The notes beneath the pieces were generated by a model. The model saw only the letters and a program-made list of their open reading frames with translations, ran no database searches and had not been told where the DNA came from. The translations under genes were made by a program, and so were the position numbers. This document shows positions 4,712 to 63,058 of a stretch of DNA of 64,000 bases, piece by piece. Position 1 is the stretch's first letter, and the number at the start of each line of letters is the position of its first letter. Source of the stretch: an uncultured Chloroflexia bacterium (GTDB lineage: Bacteria; Chloroflexota; Limnocylindria; Limnocylindrales; CSP1-4); NCBI GenBank assembly GCA_963816905.1, contig CAWFMQ010000003.1, positions 48,887-112,886 on the forward strand, in the 5' to 3' direction.

Positions 4712-4831
4712 GGACGTTCGCTCCTGGACGGCTCGGTCTCGGACATTGTGGCCGCCCGGCGGTCGTCGGGGTGGACGCAGGGCCGTTCACGCAGTGCCGC
4801 CTCCGCTCGGCGCAGTCGTTAGGATGCGGCG

Positions 4832-5782
4832 GTGACCAGGGAGGACGGCAGGCGGTTCTGGGAGGAGATCCGAACCGAGGTCGGGCGTGCCGTCGTCGGC
4901 CAGGCGGACGCATTGCGCCAGATCGTCACCGGGCTCCTTGCCCACGGCCATCTCCTCGTCGAGGACGTCCCCGGCGTCGGCAAGACGCTCCTCGCCCGGT
5001 CGATCGCCCGCGTTCTCGACCTGGACTTCGCACGGATCCAGGGCACGCCGGACCTGCTGCCTTCGGACATCACGGGCAGCAGCATCCTCGAGGCCGGCAC
5101 ATTCAGGTTCGTCGCCGGGCCCGTGTTCACCAATGTCCTGCTCGTCGACGAGATCAACCGTGCCACGCCCCGTGCGCAGTCGGCGCTCCTGGAGGCCATG
5201 CAGGAGCGGCAGGTGTCGATCGACGGCGTGACCCGACCGCTGCCGTCGCCGTTCCTGGTCCTCGCGACACAGAACCCGGTCGAGCTGGAAGGGACGTTCG
5301 TGCTCCCGGAGGCGCAGCTCGATCGCTTCCTGATGCGCATCCGCCTCGGCTATCCCGCCGAGGACGAAGAGCGCGCGATCGCCGGCCGCTACGACGCCGC
5401 CGCGGAGCCACTCGATGCAATCCGGCCGGTCATCGATCGAGCGCGGATTGCCTCGGTCATCGACGAAGTGCGGACCGTTCGCGTGAGCGACGACGTGGAG
5501 GCCTACATCGTCGGCCTCATCCGCGCCACGCGAGGTAACCCGGCGATCACCCTGGGTGCGAGCCCGCGCGCGACCGTCGCACTTCACCGTGCTGCCCAGG
5601 CGGCGGCCTGGTTGGCGGGCCGAGCCTTCGTCCTGCCCGACGACGTGCGCGAGAACTACCTCGCCGTCGTCGCACATCGGCTCATCCTCGACGTCGACCG
5701 GGTCCTGCGCGGCGAACGCGCCGAGCAGGTTCTGGAGGCGGTGCTCAGCCAGTTCCCGGCACCCCCGGTCGCGACCCGATGA
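4832..5782 (+). CDS. MoxR-family AAA+ ATPase
   Basis: Walker A GVPGVGKT, Walker B LLVDEINRA, QNPVELEGTF.LPEAQLDRF motif; 316 aa. Confidence 0.95.
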   Translation: MTREDGRRFWEEIRTEVGRAVVGQADALRQIVTGLLAHGHLLVEDVPGVGKTLLARSIARVLDLDFARIQGTPDLLPSDITGSSILEAGTFRFVAGPVFTNVLLVDEINRATPRAQSALLEAMQERQVSIDGVTRPLPSPFLVLATQNPVELEGTFVLPEAQLDRFLMRIRLGYPAEDEERAIAGRYDAAAEPLDAIRPVIDRARIASVIDEVRTVRVSDDVEAYIVGLIRATRGNPAITLGASPRATVALHRAAQAAAWLAGRAFVLPDDVRENYLAVVAHRLILDVDRVLRGERAEQVLEAVLSQFPAPPVATR

Positions 5783-58338: not shown

Positions 58339-59076
58339 ATGAGCGAGCTGATTGATCGTGAACGTGACTCCACGACGGGCACCTCGGAGTCGGCGCCCGA
58401 CGTCCCGACGATCGTCACCGAGGCCGGGCGCCAGTTGCGAGCCCCTTGGGCGGCAGGAATTGCCGGCGTCCTCTTCGCGATCATGTTCACCGCAGCCCTC
58501 TGGCTTCTGCGCAACCAGCCGATGATGACCGCCGACGACGCCGGACTCATTCGGCTGTTCGCGAACGGGGAGGATCTCGGGGCCCTGATCGGCGGGCTGT
58601 ACCTGGCGCCGTTCGCCGGCATCATGTTCCTGTGGTTCATCGCAGTCATTCGCGACCAGGTCGGGGAGCGCGAGGACCGCTTCTTCGCGACGGTTTTCCT
58701 CGGCAGCGGCCTGATCTTCGTGGCGATGCTGTTCACGACGGCCGCGGTCGCGAGCATCCCCGTCGTCGGCTCCCGCTACCTGGGCCTGCCGCCGCCGACC
58801 GCCGCCGAGATCGTGGTCCTGCGCGAGTTCTCATACGGGCTCCTGTTCGCGTTCTCAACCCGCGCAGCGGCAGTATTCCTCTTCGCCACCGCGACCATCG
58901 GGGTCAGGAGCGGCGCGTTTCCCCGGTGGTTCGCATGGACCGGGTACGCGCTCGGAGTGGTGCTGTTCGTGGCCGTGTCGTTCCTGGAGTGGAGCATCCT
59001 GGTTCTTCCGGCCTGGGTGGCGGTCGTCAGCGTGTTCATCCTGCGTCGGGAGAGGGCGCGTCGCCAGACGGCGTGA
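58339..59076 (+). CDS. polytopic membrane protein of unknown function
   Basis: GAGGAG lies 5 nt upstream of the ATG at 58339; about 6 hydrophobic spans. Confidence 0.7.
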   Translation: MSELIDRERDSTTGTSESAPDVPTIVTEAGRQLRAPWAAGIAGVLFAIMFTAALWLLRNQPMMTADDAGLIRLFANGEDLGALIGGLYLAPFAGIMFLWFIAVIRDQVGEREDRFFATVFLGSGLIFVAMLFTTAAVASIPVVGSRYLGLPPPTAAEIVVLREFSYGLLFAFSTRAAAVFLFATATIGVRSGAFPRWFAWTGYALGVVLFVAVSFLEWSILVLPAWVAVVSVFILRRERARRQTA

Positions 59077-59166
59077 CGAGTCGATCGGCCGGGGCCGTCA
59101 CGCACCTGTGCCTGCCGTTGCGTGGCGGATCGGAGGCACGTCGTTTCCGCGAGAAGGTCGACCGGG

Positions 59167-59430
59167 ACGTGGCAGGATCCCGTCGCAGTCGTCTCCGGCT
59201 GAGATCGTCTGACCCGGCGGTGAGGTCGGACAGCTCGCTCGCCCGGTGCGCGCGACGGGATCCTGCGGCTGGAGTCGCCGCGCACGACCGCTCCAGCATT
59301 GCCGGTCGCCGACCTTCCAGTTGGCCGCGGCCGTACGCCCGAGCCCAAGGGGCGGGGCGTCCGACAGTTTGTCCTCGCGAGGGGAGTCCGTCATGACGAT
59401 CTGTCATCCGCTGGAGGCCCACTGGGCCGG
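59167..59430 (+). repeat. hairpin-rich non-coding element, copy 1 (candidate structured RNA)
   Basis: Direct repeat of 60313-60576. Nested stems 59173-59186/59252-59265, 59195-59203/59238-59246, 59208-59214/59224-59230, 59393-59397/59403-59407. Confidence 0.85.
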
Positions 59431-59550
59431 CTCGACAGTCCCCCTTCGGAGGATGCCGGCGTGAGGCCGGTCGCCCACCATCTACACTCGACACGCGGCA
59501 TCGTCTCCGAGCGCGACGACCGGTCGGGATCACCAACGATGGAGGAAGCG

Positions 59551-60219
59551 ATGAGCGAGGGAAGCAAGCACGTGGTCCTGGCAATCTTCCGGGACGAGGC
59601 GGCCGCGGACGCGGCAGCCGAGGGGCTCAAGGGCTGGGAGCAGGCGAGCGACAAGAGCATCAGGCTGGACGCCGTGGGCATCCTGGTGCTCGACGAGCAC
59701 GGCGACATCAAGGCGGACAAGGTGGGCCACCGCACCAGCGGAAAGGGAGCCGGGATCGGGCTGGTCCTGGCGATGCTGACCCCGATCGGGCTGGCCGGCG
59801 GGATCATCGGCGGCGGCATCCTCGGTGCGCTGCATCACAAGGGCCTCGGCCTCTCGGACGGGGATCGCGAGCGCCTTGCCAGCGAACTGCAGGGCGGCAG
59901 GGCCGCGGTGGGCGTACTCGCCGAGTGGTACGAATCGGACGCCATCTCGGCCAAGCTTGCCGAACTCGGCGGCATTCCGGAGGTCCACGCCCTCGACGAC
60001 GAGTCGGTCGCCGAGGTCGACGCAGCCGCCGAGGACGCTCCGGCCGCCGAGGTCGACGCTGCCGCCGACGCCGCTCCGGCCGCCGCCGACGCTCCGTCCG
60101 CCGACCCGGCTCCGGCCGCCCAGGCCGCCGAGGCCGCCGACCCGGCTCCGGCCGCGGAGGCCGACGCTCCGGCCGCCGACCCGGCTCCGGCCGCGGAGGC
60201 CGACGCTCCGTCCGCCTGA
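59551..60219 (+). CDS. DUF1269-like protein with Ala/Pro/Asp-rich repetitive tail
   Basis: GGAGGAAGCG precedes the ATG. VVLAIFRDEAAADAAAEGLKGWE...GKGAGIGLVLAML...HHKGLGLSDGDRERLASELQGGRAAVGVL. Confidence 0.75.
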   Translation: MSEGSKHVVLAIFRDEAAADAAAEGLKGWEQASDKSIRLDAVGILVLDEHGDIKADKVGHRTSGKGAGIGLVLAMLTPIGLAGGIIGGGILGALHHKGLGLSDGDRERLASELQGGRAAVGVLAEWYESDAISAKLAELGGIPEVHALDDESVAEVDAAAEDAPAAEVDAAADAAPAAADAPSADPAPAAQAAEAADPAPAAEADAPAADPAPAAEADAPSA

Positions 60220-60312
60220 CGCCGAACAGGCCCGAGGTCGATCAGGTCGATCAGGTCGGGCCGGAGGGCCGCCCGGGATTGACCCGAGCGCCATCGTCAT
60301 CGTTCGGCCGAA

Positions 60313-60576
60313 ACGTGGCAGGATCCCGTCGCAGCGTCCCCAGGTGAGTTCATCTGACCCAGCGGGGAGGTCGGACAGCTCGCTCACCTGGTGCGCGCGA
60401 CGGGATCCTGTTGGCTGGAACCGCCGTGCACGACGGCTACAGCATGGCCGATCCGACCATCCGTGGTTGGTGTCGGCCCCCGCCCAGTCCCCCTGGTCGG
60501 GCGTCGCGGAATTGTGTCCGCCCTCCTGCGTCGTGTCATTACGATTCGTAATCCGGGCCCGTCCGCCGGGGCCCGG
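60313..60576 (+). repeat. hairpin-rich non-coding element, copy 2
   Basis: About 85% identical to copy 1 over the first ~150 nt (hand count: 128 matches, 17 mismatches, 4 gap positions); patchier afterwards. It ends at the stop codon of the convergent response-regulator gene. Confidence 0.85.
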
Positions 60577-61356
60577 TCAGTCGAGCTGCTCCCGAGCTTC
60601 CTCCGTCGTGTCCCAGCCCTGGTTCGAGAAGGTGGGGATGAACCGGTAGCCTCGCCCGGGTACCGTGGCGATGAAGCGCGGACGCCGGTAGTCGTTCTGG
60701 AGCTTGATGCGCAGGCTGCGCACGTGGCGGTCCACGATGTTGCTCTCGGACATGAAGTCGGTGCCCCAGATGGCATCGATGATCTCGTCCCGGGTCACCA
60801 CGCGCCCCGCCCGACTGGCGAGGAGGTACAGCAGGCTCTGCTCGATGCCGCTGAGGTGGATGACCGAGTCACCGGCGCGCACCACACGATTGACGATGTC
60901 GATCTCGATCTCGCCGAGCCGGATGGTTGGGATGATCGGGAGATCCGTCCCGGACGCGCGGCGGCTGATGACGACGGACCGCGCGAGCAGCTCTTCCGGG
61001 GAGAACGGCACGGTCAGGATGTCGTCGACCCCGAGATCGAAGGCCTTGAGCTTCGTCTGCAGGTCACCGCGTCGTGTCAGGCCCAGGACCGGCGTCCGAC
61101 TCTGCCGCAGGGTGTTCGAGGCGCCGAGCCGTCGCAGCAGCACGGCACTGTCCCCGCGGTCCATGTCGACCACGCCCAGGTGGGGGCGCCAGTGGGCGAG
61201 GATTGCCTCCGCCTCCGCGAAATCGGTCGCCGCCCGGACCACGAACAGGCCGTGATTGAGCGTCAGCTGAATGAGGTCCACGAGCAGGGGATGATCGTGG
61301 AGGACGAGAGCCCTGCGCGCCTCAACCGCATCCGGATTCACGTGGTCGACAGTCAT
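60577..61356 (-). CDS. OmpR/PhoB-family response regulator, orphan, atypical receiver
   Basis: wHTH (ESNIVDRHVRSLRIKL...VPGRGYRF). The receiver has HD instead of the acidic pair and TVPF instead of TKPF. No histidine kinase gene is adjacent. Confidence 0.9.
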   Translation of the reverse strand: MTVDHVNPDAVEARRALVLHDHPLLVDLIQLTLNHGLFVVRAATDFAEAEAILAHWRPHLGVVDMDRGDSAVLLRRLGASNTLRQSRTPVLGLTRRGDLQTKLKAFDLGVDDILTVPFSPEELLARSVVISRRASGTDLPIIPTIRLGEIEIDIVNRVVRAGDSVIHLSGIEQSLLYLLASRAGRVVTRDEIIDAIWGTDFMSESNIVDRHVRSLRIKLQNDYRRPRFIATVPGRGYRFIPTFSNQGWDTTEEAREQLD

Positions 61357-61804: not shown

Positions 61805-63058
61805 GCAGCAGCGCTGCCGGGCACCCGGCCGAGCCGCCGCCCGACCCCGCCCGACCTCAGGCGGTCTCATCGATTCCGCCACCAGCGGCCGAACCGTCGA
61901 ACGATGCCCCGCGGCCCTACGCGGTCTCATCCGTTGCGCCACCGGCTACCGAGTCACCATCCGACACCGCGCGGCCCCACGCCGTCTCATCGATTCCGCC
62001 ACCAGCGGCCGAACCGCTCGAACGATGCCCCGCGGCCCCACGCAGTCCCGTCGGTTCCGCCACCGGCTACCGAGCCACCATCCGACGCCACTCGACCTCA
62101 GGCAGCCACGGCCGGGCCACCGGGTCCGGTTCGCAGCCTGGAGATCCGGGGCGACGAGCTCTGGGCCGTCGCCGGCCGCAAGATCCTCGGATTCCACCTG
62201 GAACGCATGCTCCAGCGCGTGCCCGGGATCGTCGAGGGCGGCGGGGATTCAGAGGATGTGCACCAGATGCGCCTCTCCACCCGGCGGATGCGTGCCGCCT
62301 GGCGCGTCTTCGATGACAGCTACGATCCCGAGACCAGGAAGCGGTGCATCAATGACCTGCGCGCGATCGGCCGTGCGTTGGGTGCCGTGCGCGACCTCGA
62401 TGTCCGGCTCGAGATCTTGGCCGCCCACCGGCAGCGGCGATCGCGTCGCGGGCGCATCCGCCTGGAGCCGCTGGCGGCGGCGTGGCGCAGCGAGCGCGAA
62501 GCGCGACACGCGGAGCTCGCGGACCTGCTGCACGGCGCCCCGTTCGGGTCGTTCGTAGAGGAGTATCGCTGGCTGACGACTCCGGTATCGCTGGGGCTCG
62601 TGCCGGATGTGCCCTATACGCCGGCAAGCGTGCGACAGCGGGTCGCGTCCCGCATCTGGCAGGCCTACGAGGCGGTCTGGGCCTTCGACGGGCGGGTGGA
62701 TGGCGCCGACATCACCACGCTGCACGAGCTGCGCATCGCGGCAAAGCGGTTGCGGTACACGCTGGAATTCGCCCGCCTCCCGCTCGAGCCAGAGGCCGGT
62801 GCCCTGATCCGCCGGGTCGTGGCGCTCCAGGATCAACTGGGCGACGTACATGATCTCGACCTCGCCGCCCACCACGCCCGCGAATTCGTCGAGGCCCGAC
62901 CGGGGATGGAACGCGACGAGCGTCGTGCCGTCGGCGTCCTTGTCACCACCCTCGATCAACGCGTGGCCCGGTTGAGCGGGTCGCTCGGGCCGAGGTGGCG
63001 CGAGGTGTGTGGCGCCGGATTCCGGGGCCGCCTGGGACGCGGGCTCGGCAGGCTCTGA
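61801..63058 (+). pseudogene. CHAD-domain protein with repetitive Pro-rich N-terminus; single-base insertion at 62017
   Basis: ATG at 61801. DVHQMRLSTRRMRAAWRVF...LGAVRDLDV...LHELRIAAKRLRYTLEF lies in the frame of ORF 61904..63058. Confidence 0.8.
61861..62101. repeat. 2 x ~120-nt tandem repeat (4 x 21-aa units) in the CHAD N-terminus
   Basis: 61861-61980 versus 61981-62101. The second copy has gaaccgCtcgaacg where the first has gaaccgtcgaacg. Confidence 0.9.

Follow-up and report, generated by a model that had tools for sequence, protein, structure and literature searches.

A conserved multi-hairpin non-coding element, repeated beside an orphan response-regulator gene in Limnocylindria-type Chloroflexota, as a candidate small RNA gene with a palindromic promoter-like motif

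In the GacA-dependent RsmY/RsmZ systems, small RNAs lie beside a response regulator or under its control through a palindromic upstream site. New families of bacterial non-coding RNA turn up often, and the Limnocylindria, abundant Chloroflexota of soil and freshwater with almost no cultured members, have to our knowledge no described regulatory RNAs. Here we analyze a hairpin-rich non-coding element that occurs as two direct copies (copy 1, 59167–59430; copy 2, 60313–60576) in a 64,000-nt stretch of an uncultured member of this lineage (GenBank assembly GCA_963816905.1, contig CAWFMQ010000003.1, positions 48,887 to 112,886). This whole stretch is called the window below, and positions without a locus label refer to it. 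The copies bracket a gene for a DUF1269-like membrane protein, and copy 2 adjoins a gene for an orphan OmpR-type response regulator. On the sequence evidence, the repeats represent two paralogues of one conserved gene for a multi-hairpin non-coding RNA, of a family absent from Rfam 15, and each copy probably encodes a small RNA of ~200 nt on the minus strand, with a promoter of its own and a long hairpin at its end.

The element shares with RsmY/RsmZ the general plan of a multi-hairpin non-coding RNA gene whose own (here predicted) promoter is preceded or overlapped by a conserved palindrome, together with a set of co-regulated promoters and a genetic link to a response-regulator gene. In contrast to that system, the element has no sequence or Rfam similarity to RsmY/RsmZ and its loops lack repeated GGA motifs. 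Moreover, the neighboring regulator is of the OmpR type and not the GacA/NarL type, and the palindrome is centered near −41, where it overlaps the −35 region instead of lying further upstream.

Conservation and covariation of the repeated element

The upstream open reading frames (ORFs) end at 59076 (membrane protein) and 60219 (DUF1269-like protein), so that the copies begin 91 and 94 nt downstream, respectively, and copy 2 ends at 60576, abutting the stop codon (60577–60579) of the minus-strand regulator gene. In a global alignment the copies were 84.9% identical over the first ~150 nt (129 of 152 columns), 62.8% over the remainder and 75.5% over the whole length, with 18 gap columns, many of them of 1–2 nt. 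Stem P1 pairs perfectly in both copies: its 15-nt arms at 59172–59186 and 59252–59266 are 100% complementary, and the arm recurs at 60318–60332 (repeats I21/I22). Stems P2 and P3, as well as a distal stem that reads AUGAC/GUCAU in copy 1 and AUUAC/GUAAU in copy 2, were present in the minimum-free-energy folds of both copies. The gene ends, alignment and folds thus reproduced all coordinates and stems of a first-pass annotation made from the letters of this DNA. The similarity is in fact longer at the P1 end, starting ~9 nt earlier at 59158/60304 (repeat D9). A 19-mer from the apical region, GAGGTCGGACAGCTCGCTC, is confined to the two copies in the 64-kb window (0.11 expected), and no third copy was found there.

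In plus-strand orientation, H1 is a hairpin of ~95 nt built from P1 (15–19 bp), a short GCG/CGC extension, P2, an asymmetric internal loop with (C)TCGCTCA, and the apical stem P3. It is followed by H2 (CUGGAG...CUCCAG), H3 (GGCCG...GCUGACC/GGUCGGC...CGGCC) and H4 (CGUCCCCG...CGGGGACG, with the loop CCCAG). The element can carry an insert of 0–100 nt, which is present in one subgroup of homologues, and its 3' end consists of AGTGTGTCC, 17 nt, and then GCGTCATGACGGnnCGTCAT.

When 185,579 representative genomes were scanned for both P1 arms, 20 loci were returned, comprising 4 true homologues and 16 chance matches. The true homologues all came from Chloroflexota metagenome-assembled genomes, one of them labeled Limnocylindrales. 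A metagenome scan added nine more, giving 13 by exact pattern. Nine regulator loci (L031–L039), picked by protein identity and hence independently of the element, were then searched with a covariance model built from the first homologue set. The full element was found in L033, L035 and L038 and an H1-only hairpin in L036; the remaining loci of the nine gave no clear match to the model. Altogether, the homologue search yielded 17 further members in genomes and metagenomes of uncultured soil Chloroflexota (Limnocylindria-type). Each matching representative genome (n = 4) had one locus, with one element per locus, and the divergence between genomes was large, as expected under vertical descent.

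The structure is maintained across these sequences. In a model-guided alignment of 15 sequences, 86.2% of cells over the whole element were standard pairs, compared to 35–44% when partners were slid by 1–3 columns, and for H1 (12 sequences) the values were 91.8% and 31–47%, the paired percentages being somewhat inflated as the alignments were fitted to the model. A hand-set consensus structure was used, since the automatic one derived from per-sequence folds was too noisy. Twelve pairs in the whole element had changed on both sides, and none of 500 shuffles reached its covariation score. H1 also had 12 such pairs (shuffle mean 5.2; 0/500), with a covariation score of 0.21 vs 0.12. In L035, which was found without requiring P1, five P1 pairs departed from the consensus and all five were compensatory (Watson–Crick to Watson–Crick), while L033, found in the same way, had two compensatory changes and one A–C. 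The apical P3 stems had unrelated sequences between subgroups, and their pairing was always kept. Hence, compensatory substitution exceeded the controls, and the secondary structure is conserved.

The element has no conserved ORF. The copies differ by frame-breaking indels of 1–2 nt, the sole conserved AUG opens a frame of just two codons before a stop in copy 2 and of four in L023, and gene calling in L033, L035 and L038 left the element free of ORFs. These observations were used instead of a stop-free-frame test, which is uninformative at this G+C content. The indels and the covariation together bear out the earlier proposal of a structured non-coding element with genuine compensatory changes. 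The same annotation had recognized no riboswitch, RNase P, signal recognition particle, transfer-messenger RNA (tmRNA) or 6S motif, in good agreement with the Rfam 15 scan, which gave no match at the gathering score in the whole window. Under permissive settings, no sub-threshold hit in the window was better than those to microRNA or VA models (~20 bits, E > 1), and nothing relevant appeared in seven homologous loci. ARAGORN found no tRNA or tmRNA. A literature search for the P1 sequence retrieved BamHI-site primers only, and one on Limnocylindria and non-coding RNA retrieved nothing relevant.

Synteny is conserved as well. An orthologue of the regulator, 74–88% identical by tblastn, was found tail-to-tail with the element at nearly every homologue locus of the exact-pattern scans, and 13 of 18 elements are tail-to-tail with an orphan OmpR-type regulator gene. 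The position of copy 2 relative to the regulator recurs in 11 other loci. In the twelfth regulator-bearing locus, L035, the element and its promoter-like motif lie ~1.4 kb away from the regulator gene, flanked by two opposite-strand genes, an arrangement that indicates an independent unit. Over H1–H4 the two window copies are 78% identical to each other, and copy 1 is 79% identical to the single copy of L021. Copy 1 is therefore as near to L021 as to copy 2, and the duplication is not recent. Our best reading is that copy 2 probably occupies the ancestral position beside the regulator gene and that copy 1 is an older, extra paralogue 1.1 kb away.

A promoter-like motif and the strand of the predicted RNA

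In the first-pass annotation, the distal hairpin belonged to the RNA fold. It is better read, jointly with the conserved AGTGTGTCC, as a minus-strand promoter embedded in a palindrome: with AGTGTG 17 nt away, it has the layout of a sigma-70-type promoter on that strand and recurs before protein genes. The palindrome is always accompanied by a conserved AGTGTG(T/C)C at a fixed 17 nt upstream of it. In minus-strand reading the motif is (C/G)AGATGACGGnCCGTC-ATGAC(G/A)-N17-(C/G)ACACT. An independent sigma-70 scan of 58900–60800 listed one site only, on the minus strand from 60539 to 60511 (ATGACA-17-CACAAT; 9/12 matches; 0.0 expected in shuffles). Across 40 palindrome instances from the window and the regulator loci, NANNNT was found at a spacer of 16–18 in 38 and of exactly 17 in 34, compared to 0/40 in the mirror direction; the commonest −10-like hexamers were GACACT and CACACT. 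Every one of the 21 regulator or element loci had the motif and all 18 chance loci lacked it, and its only instances in the window are those of the two copies (0.03 expected). A promoter-like site of its own directly upstream, as an independent small RNA should have, is thus evident at the level of sequence. The 17-nt spacer places the center of the palindrome near −41, which is the position typical of class II activators, and the palindrome would fit such an activator site. We also considered a plus-strand promoter of the extracytoplasmic function (ECF) type (TGTGTC...CGTC) and rejected it, as its spacing is short and the gene context agrees in a minority of cases only.

The direction of the motif is supported by the genes around it. 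In the loci with independent gene calls (L031–L039), all 11 motif instances that are not followed by a full element have a co-directional gene start 45–420 nt downstream, as listed here:

L031 (two tandem copies, 4813–4860 and 4958–5005) and L034: a DUF8253 gene
L032: a 58-aa gene; a solute-binding-protein gene
L036: the H1-like hairpin, then the regulator gene
L037 (motifs 2062–2079 and 2838–2855): a 133-aa gene; a glycine-zipper/DUF1269-like gene, then GlsB
L039 (motif 5331–5351 among them): an 88-aa gene; a GlsB-type gene, then CsbD; a 32-aa gene, then GlsB

If the motif acted the other way round, most of these instances would direct antisense transcription into the 3' end of a gene, either the regulator gene or another one. 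Of the four motif instances in L002, one lies before the element and the others before a SHOCT gene, a DUF2252-like ORF and a VIT1-like ORF. The motif, ATGACGGnCCGTCATGAC(G/A)-N17-(C/G)ACACT, was recorded in loci L002, L005, L008, L010, L021 and L030–L039, and the genes preceded by it around the regulator belong to the GlsB/Transgly_assoc, glycine-zipper/DUF1269-like, YGGT-like, SHOCT, CsbD-cluster, DUF8253 and VIT1-like types. This set looks like a compact regulon of small stress-type genes.

Because wobble counts and folding energies were equivocal (see below), the strand was assigned from the promoter-like motif and the gene context. The resulting features of the window are as follows:

59158–59360, minus strand: predicted small RNA, copy 1 (extra paralogue), comprising, 5' to 3', H4' 59359–59336, H3' 59331–59301, H2' 59297–59268, the long hairpin H1' 59267–59171 and a conserved ~13-nt tail; covariance model R1, 159 bits at 59170–59360, folds, and the conserved tail as repeat D9; 5' end placed from the −10 position
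59366–59407, minus strand: promoter-like bipartite motif, copy 1, with palindrome 59407–59390, −35 ATGACG 59394–59389, 17-nt spacer and −10 CAAACT 59371–59366; pattern match and alignment with 39 other instances
60304–60504, minus strand: predicted small RNA, copy 2, with H1' 60412–60317; R1 137.5 bits at 60316–60504, R2 105.9 bits on H1, minus-strand fold z = −4.5
60511–60552, minus strand: promoter-like bipartite motif, copy 2, with palindrome 60552–60535, −35 ATGACA 60539–60534, 17-nt spacer and −10 CACAAT 60516–60511; sigma-70 scan and pattern match
60553–60576, minus strand: GC-rich hairpin CCGGGCCC-N8-GGGCCCGG between the regulator stop codon and the copy-2 promoter-like motif; read from the sequence and seen in the fold
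60577–61356, minus strand: orphan OmpR-family response-regulator gene (Pfam Response_reg and Trans_reg_C)
59539–60219, plus strand: DUF1269-like (glycine-zipper) membrane-protein gene between the copies, on the strand opposite to the predicted RNAs; Pfam DUF1269 26.2 bits, just below the cut-off

At copy 2, the minus strand therefore carries, in order, the regulator gene (61356 to 60577), the GC hairpin (60576–60553), the palindrome and −35 (60552–60534), the −10 (60516–60511) and the predicted RNA (~60504 to 60304), which starts directly with H4' and finishes with H1' and the tail ACGUUUCGG. Copy 1 has the identical layout (promoter-like motif 59407–59366, RNA ~59360 to 59158). Both strands fold better than shuffled sequence, with minus-strand z-scores of −4.5 and −2.5. 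The GC-rich hairpin may be the terminator of the regulator gene, though it lacks a U-tract and was not called by the terminator scan.

In the proposed model, each repeat would be a small transcription unit headed by a promoter that begins with the palindrome CATGACGGnCCGTCATG, the right end of which supplies the −35-like ATGAC(G/A), followed by 17 nt and the −10-like (C/G)ACACT. The product would be a non-coding RNA of ~200 nt with the four hairpins H4', H3', H2' and H1', in which the ~95-nt H1' and its short GU(U/C)(U/C) tail probably terminate or stabilize the transcript. Copy 2 would be transcribed from just downstream of the regulator gene, after the GC hairpin of that gene, with the DUF1269-like gene between the copies on the other strand. 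Since the same type of promoter-like motif precedes small stress-type membrane-protein genes in relatives, we infer that the RNA belongs to a small stress regulon and is regulated along with its other members, most likely acting in trans by base pairing or protein binding. At loci of the L023 type, its role may additionally or alternatively be that of a structured leader.

Two further arrangements of the motif were observed. A possible degenerate promoter is present on the plus strand before the DUF1269-like gene (59452–59488; GATGCCGG CGTGAGG, 16 nt, TACACT at 59483–59488), ~50–65 nt before the start codons at 59539 and 59551, and the copy 1 palindrome lies divergent from it at a distance of ~45 nt. 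In L030, two palindromes overlap on opposite strands at 115–135 with a third 50 nt away, which suggests back-to-back divergent promoters of the same type.

Competing explanations of the element

Several observations weigh against a free minus-strand small RNA. The homologous sequences are few and related, and the invariance of P1 is inflated by the selection of the first 13 homologues for exact P1. The −10 consensus lacks the first T, and the −10 of copy 1 has A2 and T6 but matches TATAAT at only 3/6 positions, which is why the simple sigma-70 scan did not list it. H1' is very stable and is followed by GU(U/C)(U/C) in most homologues, which falls short of the at least 5 T in 8 bases used by the terminator scan, and that scan called no canonical hairpin with a U-tract. 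In one subgroup, a YGGT-like gene follows H1' after 35 nt on the same strand with no motif between, so that in this subgroup the element may give rise to a leader and not to a free small RNA. Finally, the ratio of G–U to A–C in plus-strand reading is 37:34 for the whole element and favors neither strand, so that the plus-strand call that the first-pass annotation based on one U–G wobble does not extend to the family. The preference alternates from hairpin to hairpin: H1 (31:9) and H3 (23:9) favor the plus strand, and H2 (2:13) and H4 (8:11) the minus strand. The H2 count includes a C–A kept in seven sequences, which on the minus strand is a U–G under a UGCG-type loop. Per-hairpin folding energies alternate likewise, and those of the whole element are equivocal. 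This alternation could mean that both strands are used, with H1 as a bidirectional terminator and the other hairpins working on the minus strand.

If the RNA came from the plus strand, it would be a 3' untranslated region (UTR) element or a small RNA following the membrane-protein and DUF1269-like genes, and its C-rich loops (CCCCCAGG in H1, CCCAG in H4) would target G-rich ribosome-binding sites by base pairing, in the manner of 6C-type small RNAs. We regard this as unlikely. The wobble ratios of H1 and H3 point that way, as does their folding (H1 folds better on the plus strand in 10/15 sequences and H3 in 12/15), both window copies lie ~90 nt downstream of plus-strand genes, and the loops are C-rich in several homologues. 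However, the sequence upstream of H1 shows no conserved promoter or −10. Most other loci have a divergent gene on the P1 side, the start codon of which is ~35 nt from H1 in the L023–L027 subgroup, leaving neither a gene for a 3' UTR nor conserved room for a plus-strand promoter; the 3'-UTR idea of the first-pass annotation consequently does not generalize. H2, with its conserved mismatch, and H4 fold better on the minus strand. The AGTGTG-N17-palindrome unit would have no role at the 3' end of a plus-strand RNA, yet it recurs without the hairpins before protein genes. A plus-strand RNA would share two C-rich loops and a host of high G+C with 6C RNA (RF01066) and other C-rich-loop small RNAs of high-GC Gram-positives, but there is no match to 6C even at E ≤ 10 or to any other Rfam family, the element has four or five hairpins in 200–300 nt compared to two in the ~60–90 nt of 6C, and the promoter evidence favors the other strand, on which the loops are G-rich. 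It is likewise doubtful that the element is a minus-strand cis-regulatory leader or attenuator, in which H1' would control either transcription into downstream stress genes or RNA processing, with the ~20-bp duplex as a possible substrate of RNase III, and the window copies would be orphaned leaders. L023–L027 fit this idea, since only 35 nt, with no motif among them, separate H1' from a co-directional YGGT-like gene that has a ribosome-binding site and a GlsB gene behind it, and so does L036, where the H1-only hairpin has a promoter motif on one side and the regulator gene on the other. On the other hand, no co-directional gene lies downstream at either window copy, L033 or L035, and a second promoter motif separates H1' from the next gene in L002, L005/L010, L008, L021 and L030. 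In addition, the downstream gene families vary and no alternative antiterminator pairing was seen. A riboswitch was rejected, as there is no consistent class of downstream gene.

The first-pass annotation had also considered elements acting as DNA, namely a miniature inverted-repeat transposable element (MITE), a palindrome-associated mobile element or a recombination site delimiting a gene cassette, of which an attC-like site bracketing the DUF1269-like gene would be an example. Two direct copies do bracket one gene, each gene is followed by a long imperfect palindrome as in an integron attC, and the balance of G–U and A–C would fit a structure on either DNA strand. An explanation of this kind is nevertheless very improbable, since in the four representative genomes the element is a single locus, always beside the regulator gene, with the divergence expected for vertical descent, and searches of viral contigs, phage records and plasmids gave no match to it. 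Its palindrome arms are internal and not terminal, and no flanking direct repeats were seen. Unlike attC, it has no R''/R' core sites (RYYYAAC/GTTRRRY) flanking the palindrome in any aligned homologue and forms no array; it keeps a fixed chromosomal position in other genomes and contains ~150 nt of additional conserved hairpins together with the promoter-like motif. It resembles MITEs and repetitive extragenic palindromes (REPs) as a hairpin-rich intergenic repeat without an ORF, but differs from them in having one or two copies, conserved synteny, and a structure kept by compensatory substitutions across distant genomes. A MITE or insertion sequence (IS) end was rejected on the copy number, the synteny, the compensatory evolution and the lack of matches in mobile-element collections, and neither terminal inverted repeats nor target duplications were seen. 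A further rejected reading takes the copies for the template and variable repeats (TR/VR) of a diversity-generating retroelement: the substitutions that distinguish them are not specific to adenine, and the ORFs read beside them included no reverse-transcriptase gene.

The adjacent regulator and the associated gene set

The regulator next to copy 2 has more than 5,500 homologues, from sources naming Limnocylindrales or Chloroflexi. Read by eye, the protein looks atypical: it has TVPF where receiver domains usually have the KPF lysine motif, and HDH at the N-terminal acidic pair. Its gene has no histidine-kinase gene beside it, and the regulator may be independent of phosphorylation. In L032 and L039, genes for Crp/Fnr-type regulators adjoin the response-regulator gene. 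In L036, the H1-like long hairpin (2737–2821; 31 bits; P1 variant GGGUCCCGCCGC/GCGACGGGACCC) occurs without H2–H4 between a promoter motif (2598–2615) and the start of the regulator gene (3001), which suggests that the long hairpin is a separable module, such as a terminator or processing site.

The DUF1269-like gene between the window copies is absent from the other element loci, although glycine-zipper/DUF1269-like genes elsewhere carry the motif (L037). The family label from the first-pass annotation is borderline, as the 26.2 bits compare with a Pfam cut-off of 26.9. Tandem repeats of 18 nt (59969–60200, plus strand; repeat family D1) encode a low-complexity Ala/Pro/Asp/Glu tract that makes up the C-terminal third of the protein. 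A second repetitive coding region is present further along the window (61837–62103, plus strand; repeats D2/D3), where the region N-terminal to a CHAD domain consists of ~60-nt tandem repeats that encode Pro-rich units.

A more far-reaching proposal, which we regard as speculative and put forward tentatively, is that the element represents a class of large (200–330 nt) structured RNAs specific to Limnocylindria-type Chloroflexota, forming the RNA arm of a stress regulon with a new palindrome promoter and working with the adjacent atypical OmpR-type regulator, for example as a protein-binding or regulator-titrating RNA and not as a plain antisense one. The locus also calls for caution in the reading of repeated structures, since what looks like a stem with compensatory changes can be a promoter or operator palindrome of the other strand. 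It yields three testable things: an RNA family outside Rfam 15, a promoter/operator motif that would tie this RNA to small stress-type membrane proteins, and an orphan response regulator as a candidate partner. Together, these would provide an entry point into the stress regulation of an uncultured lineage.

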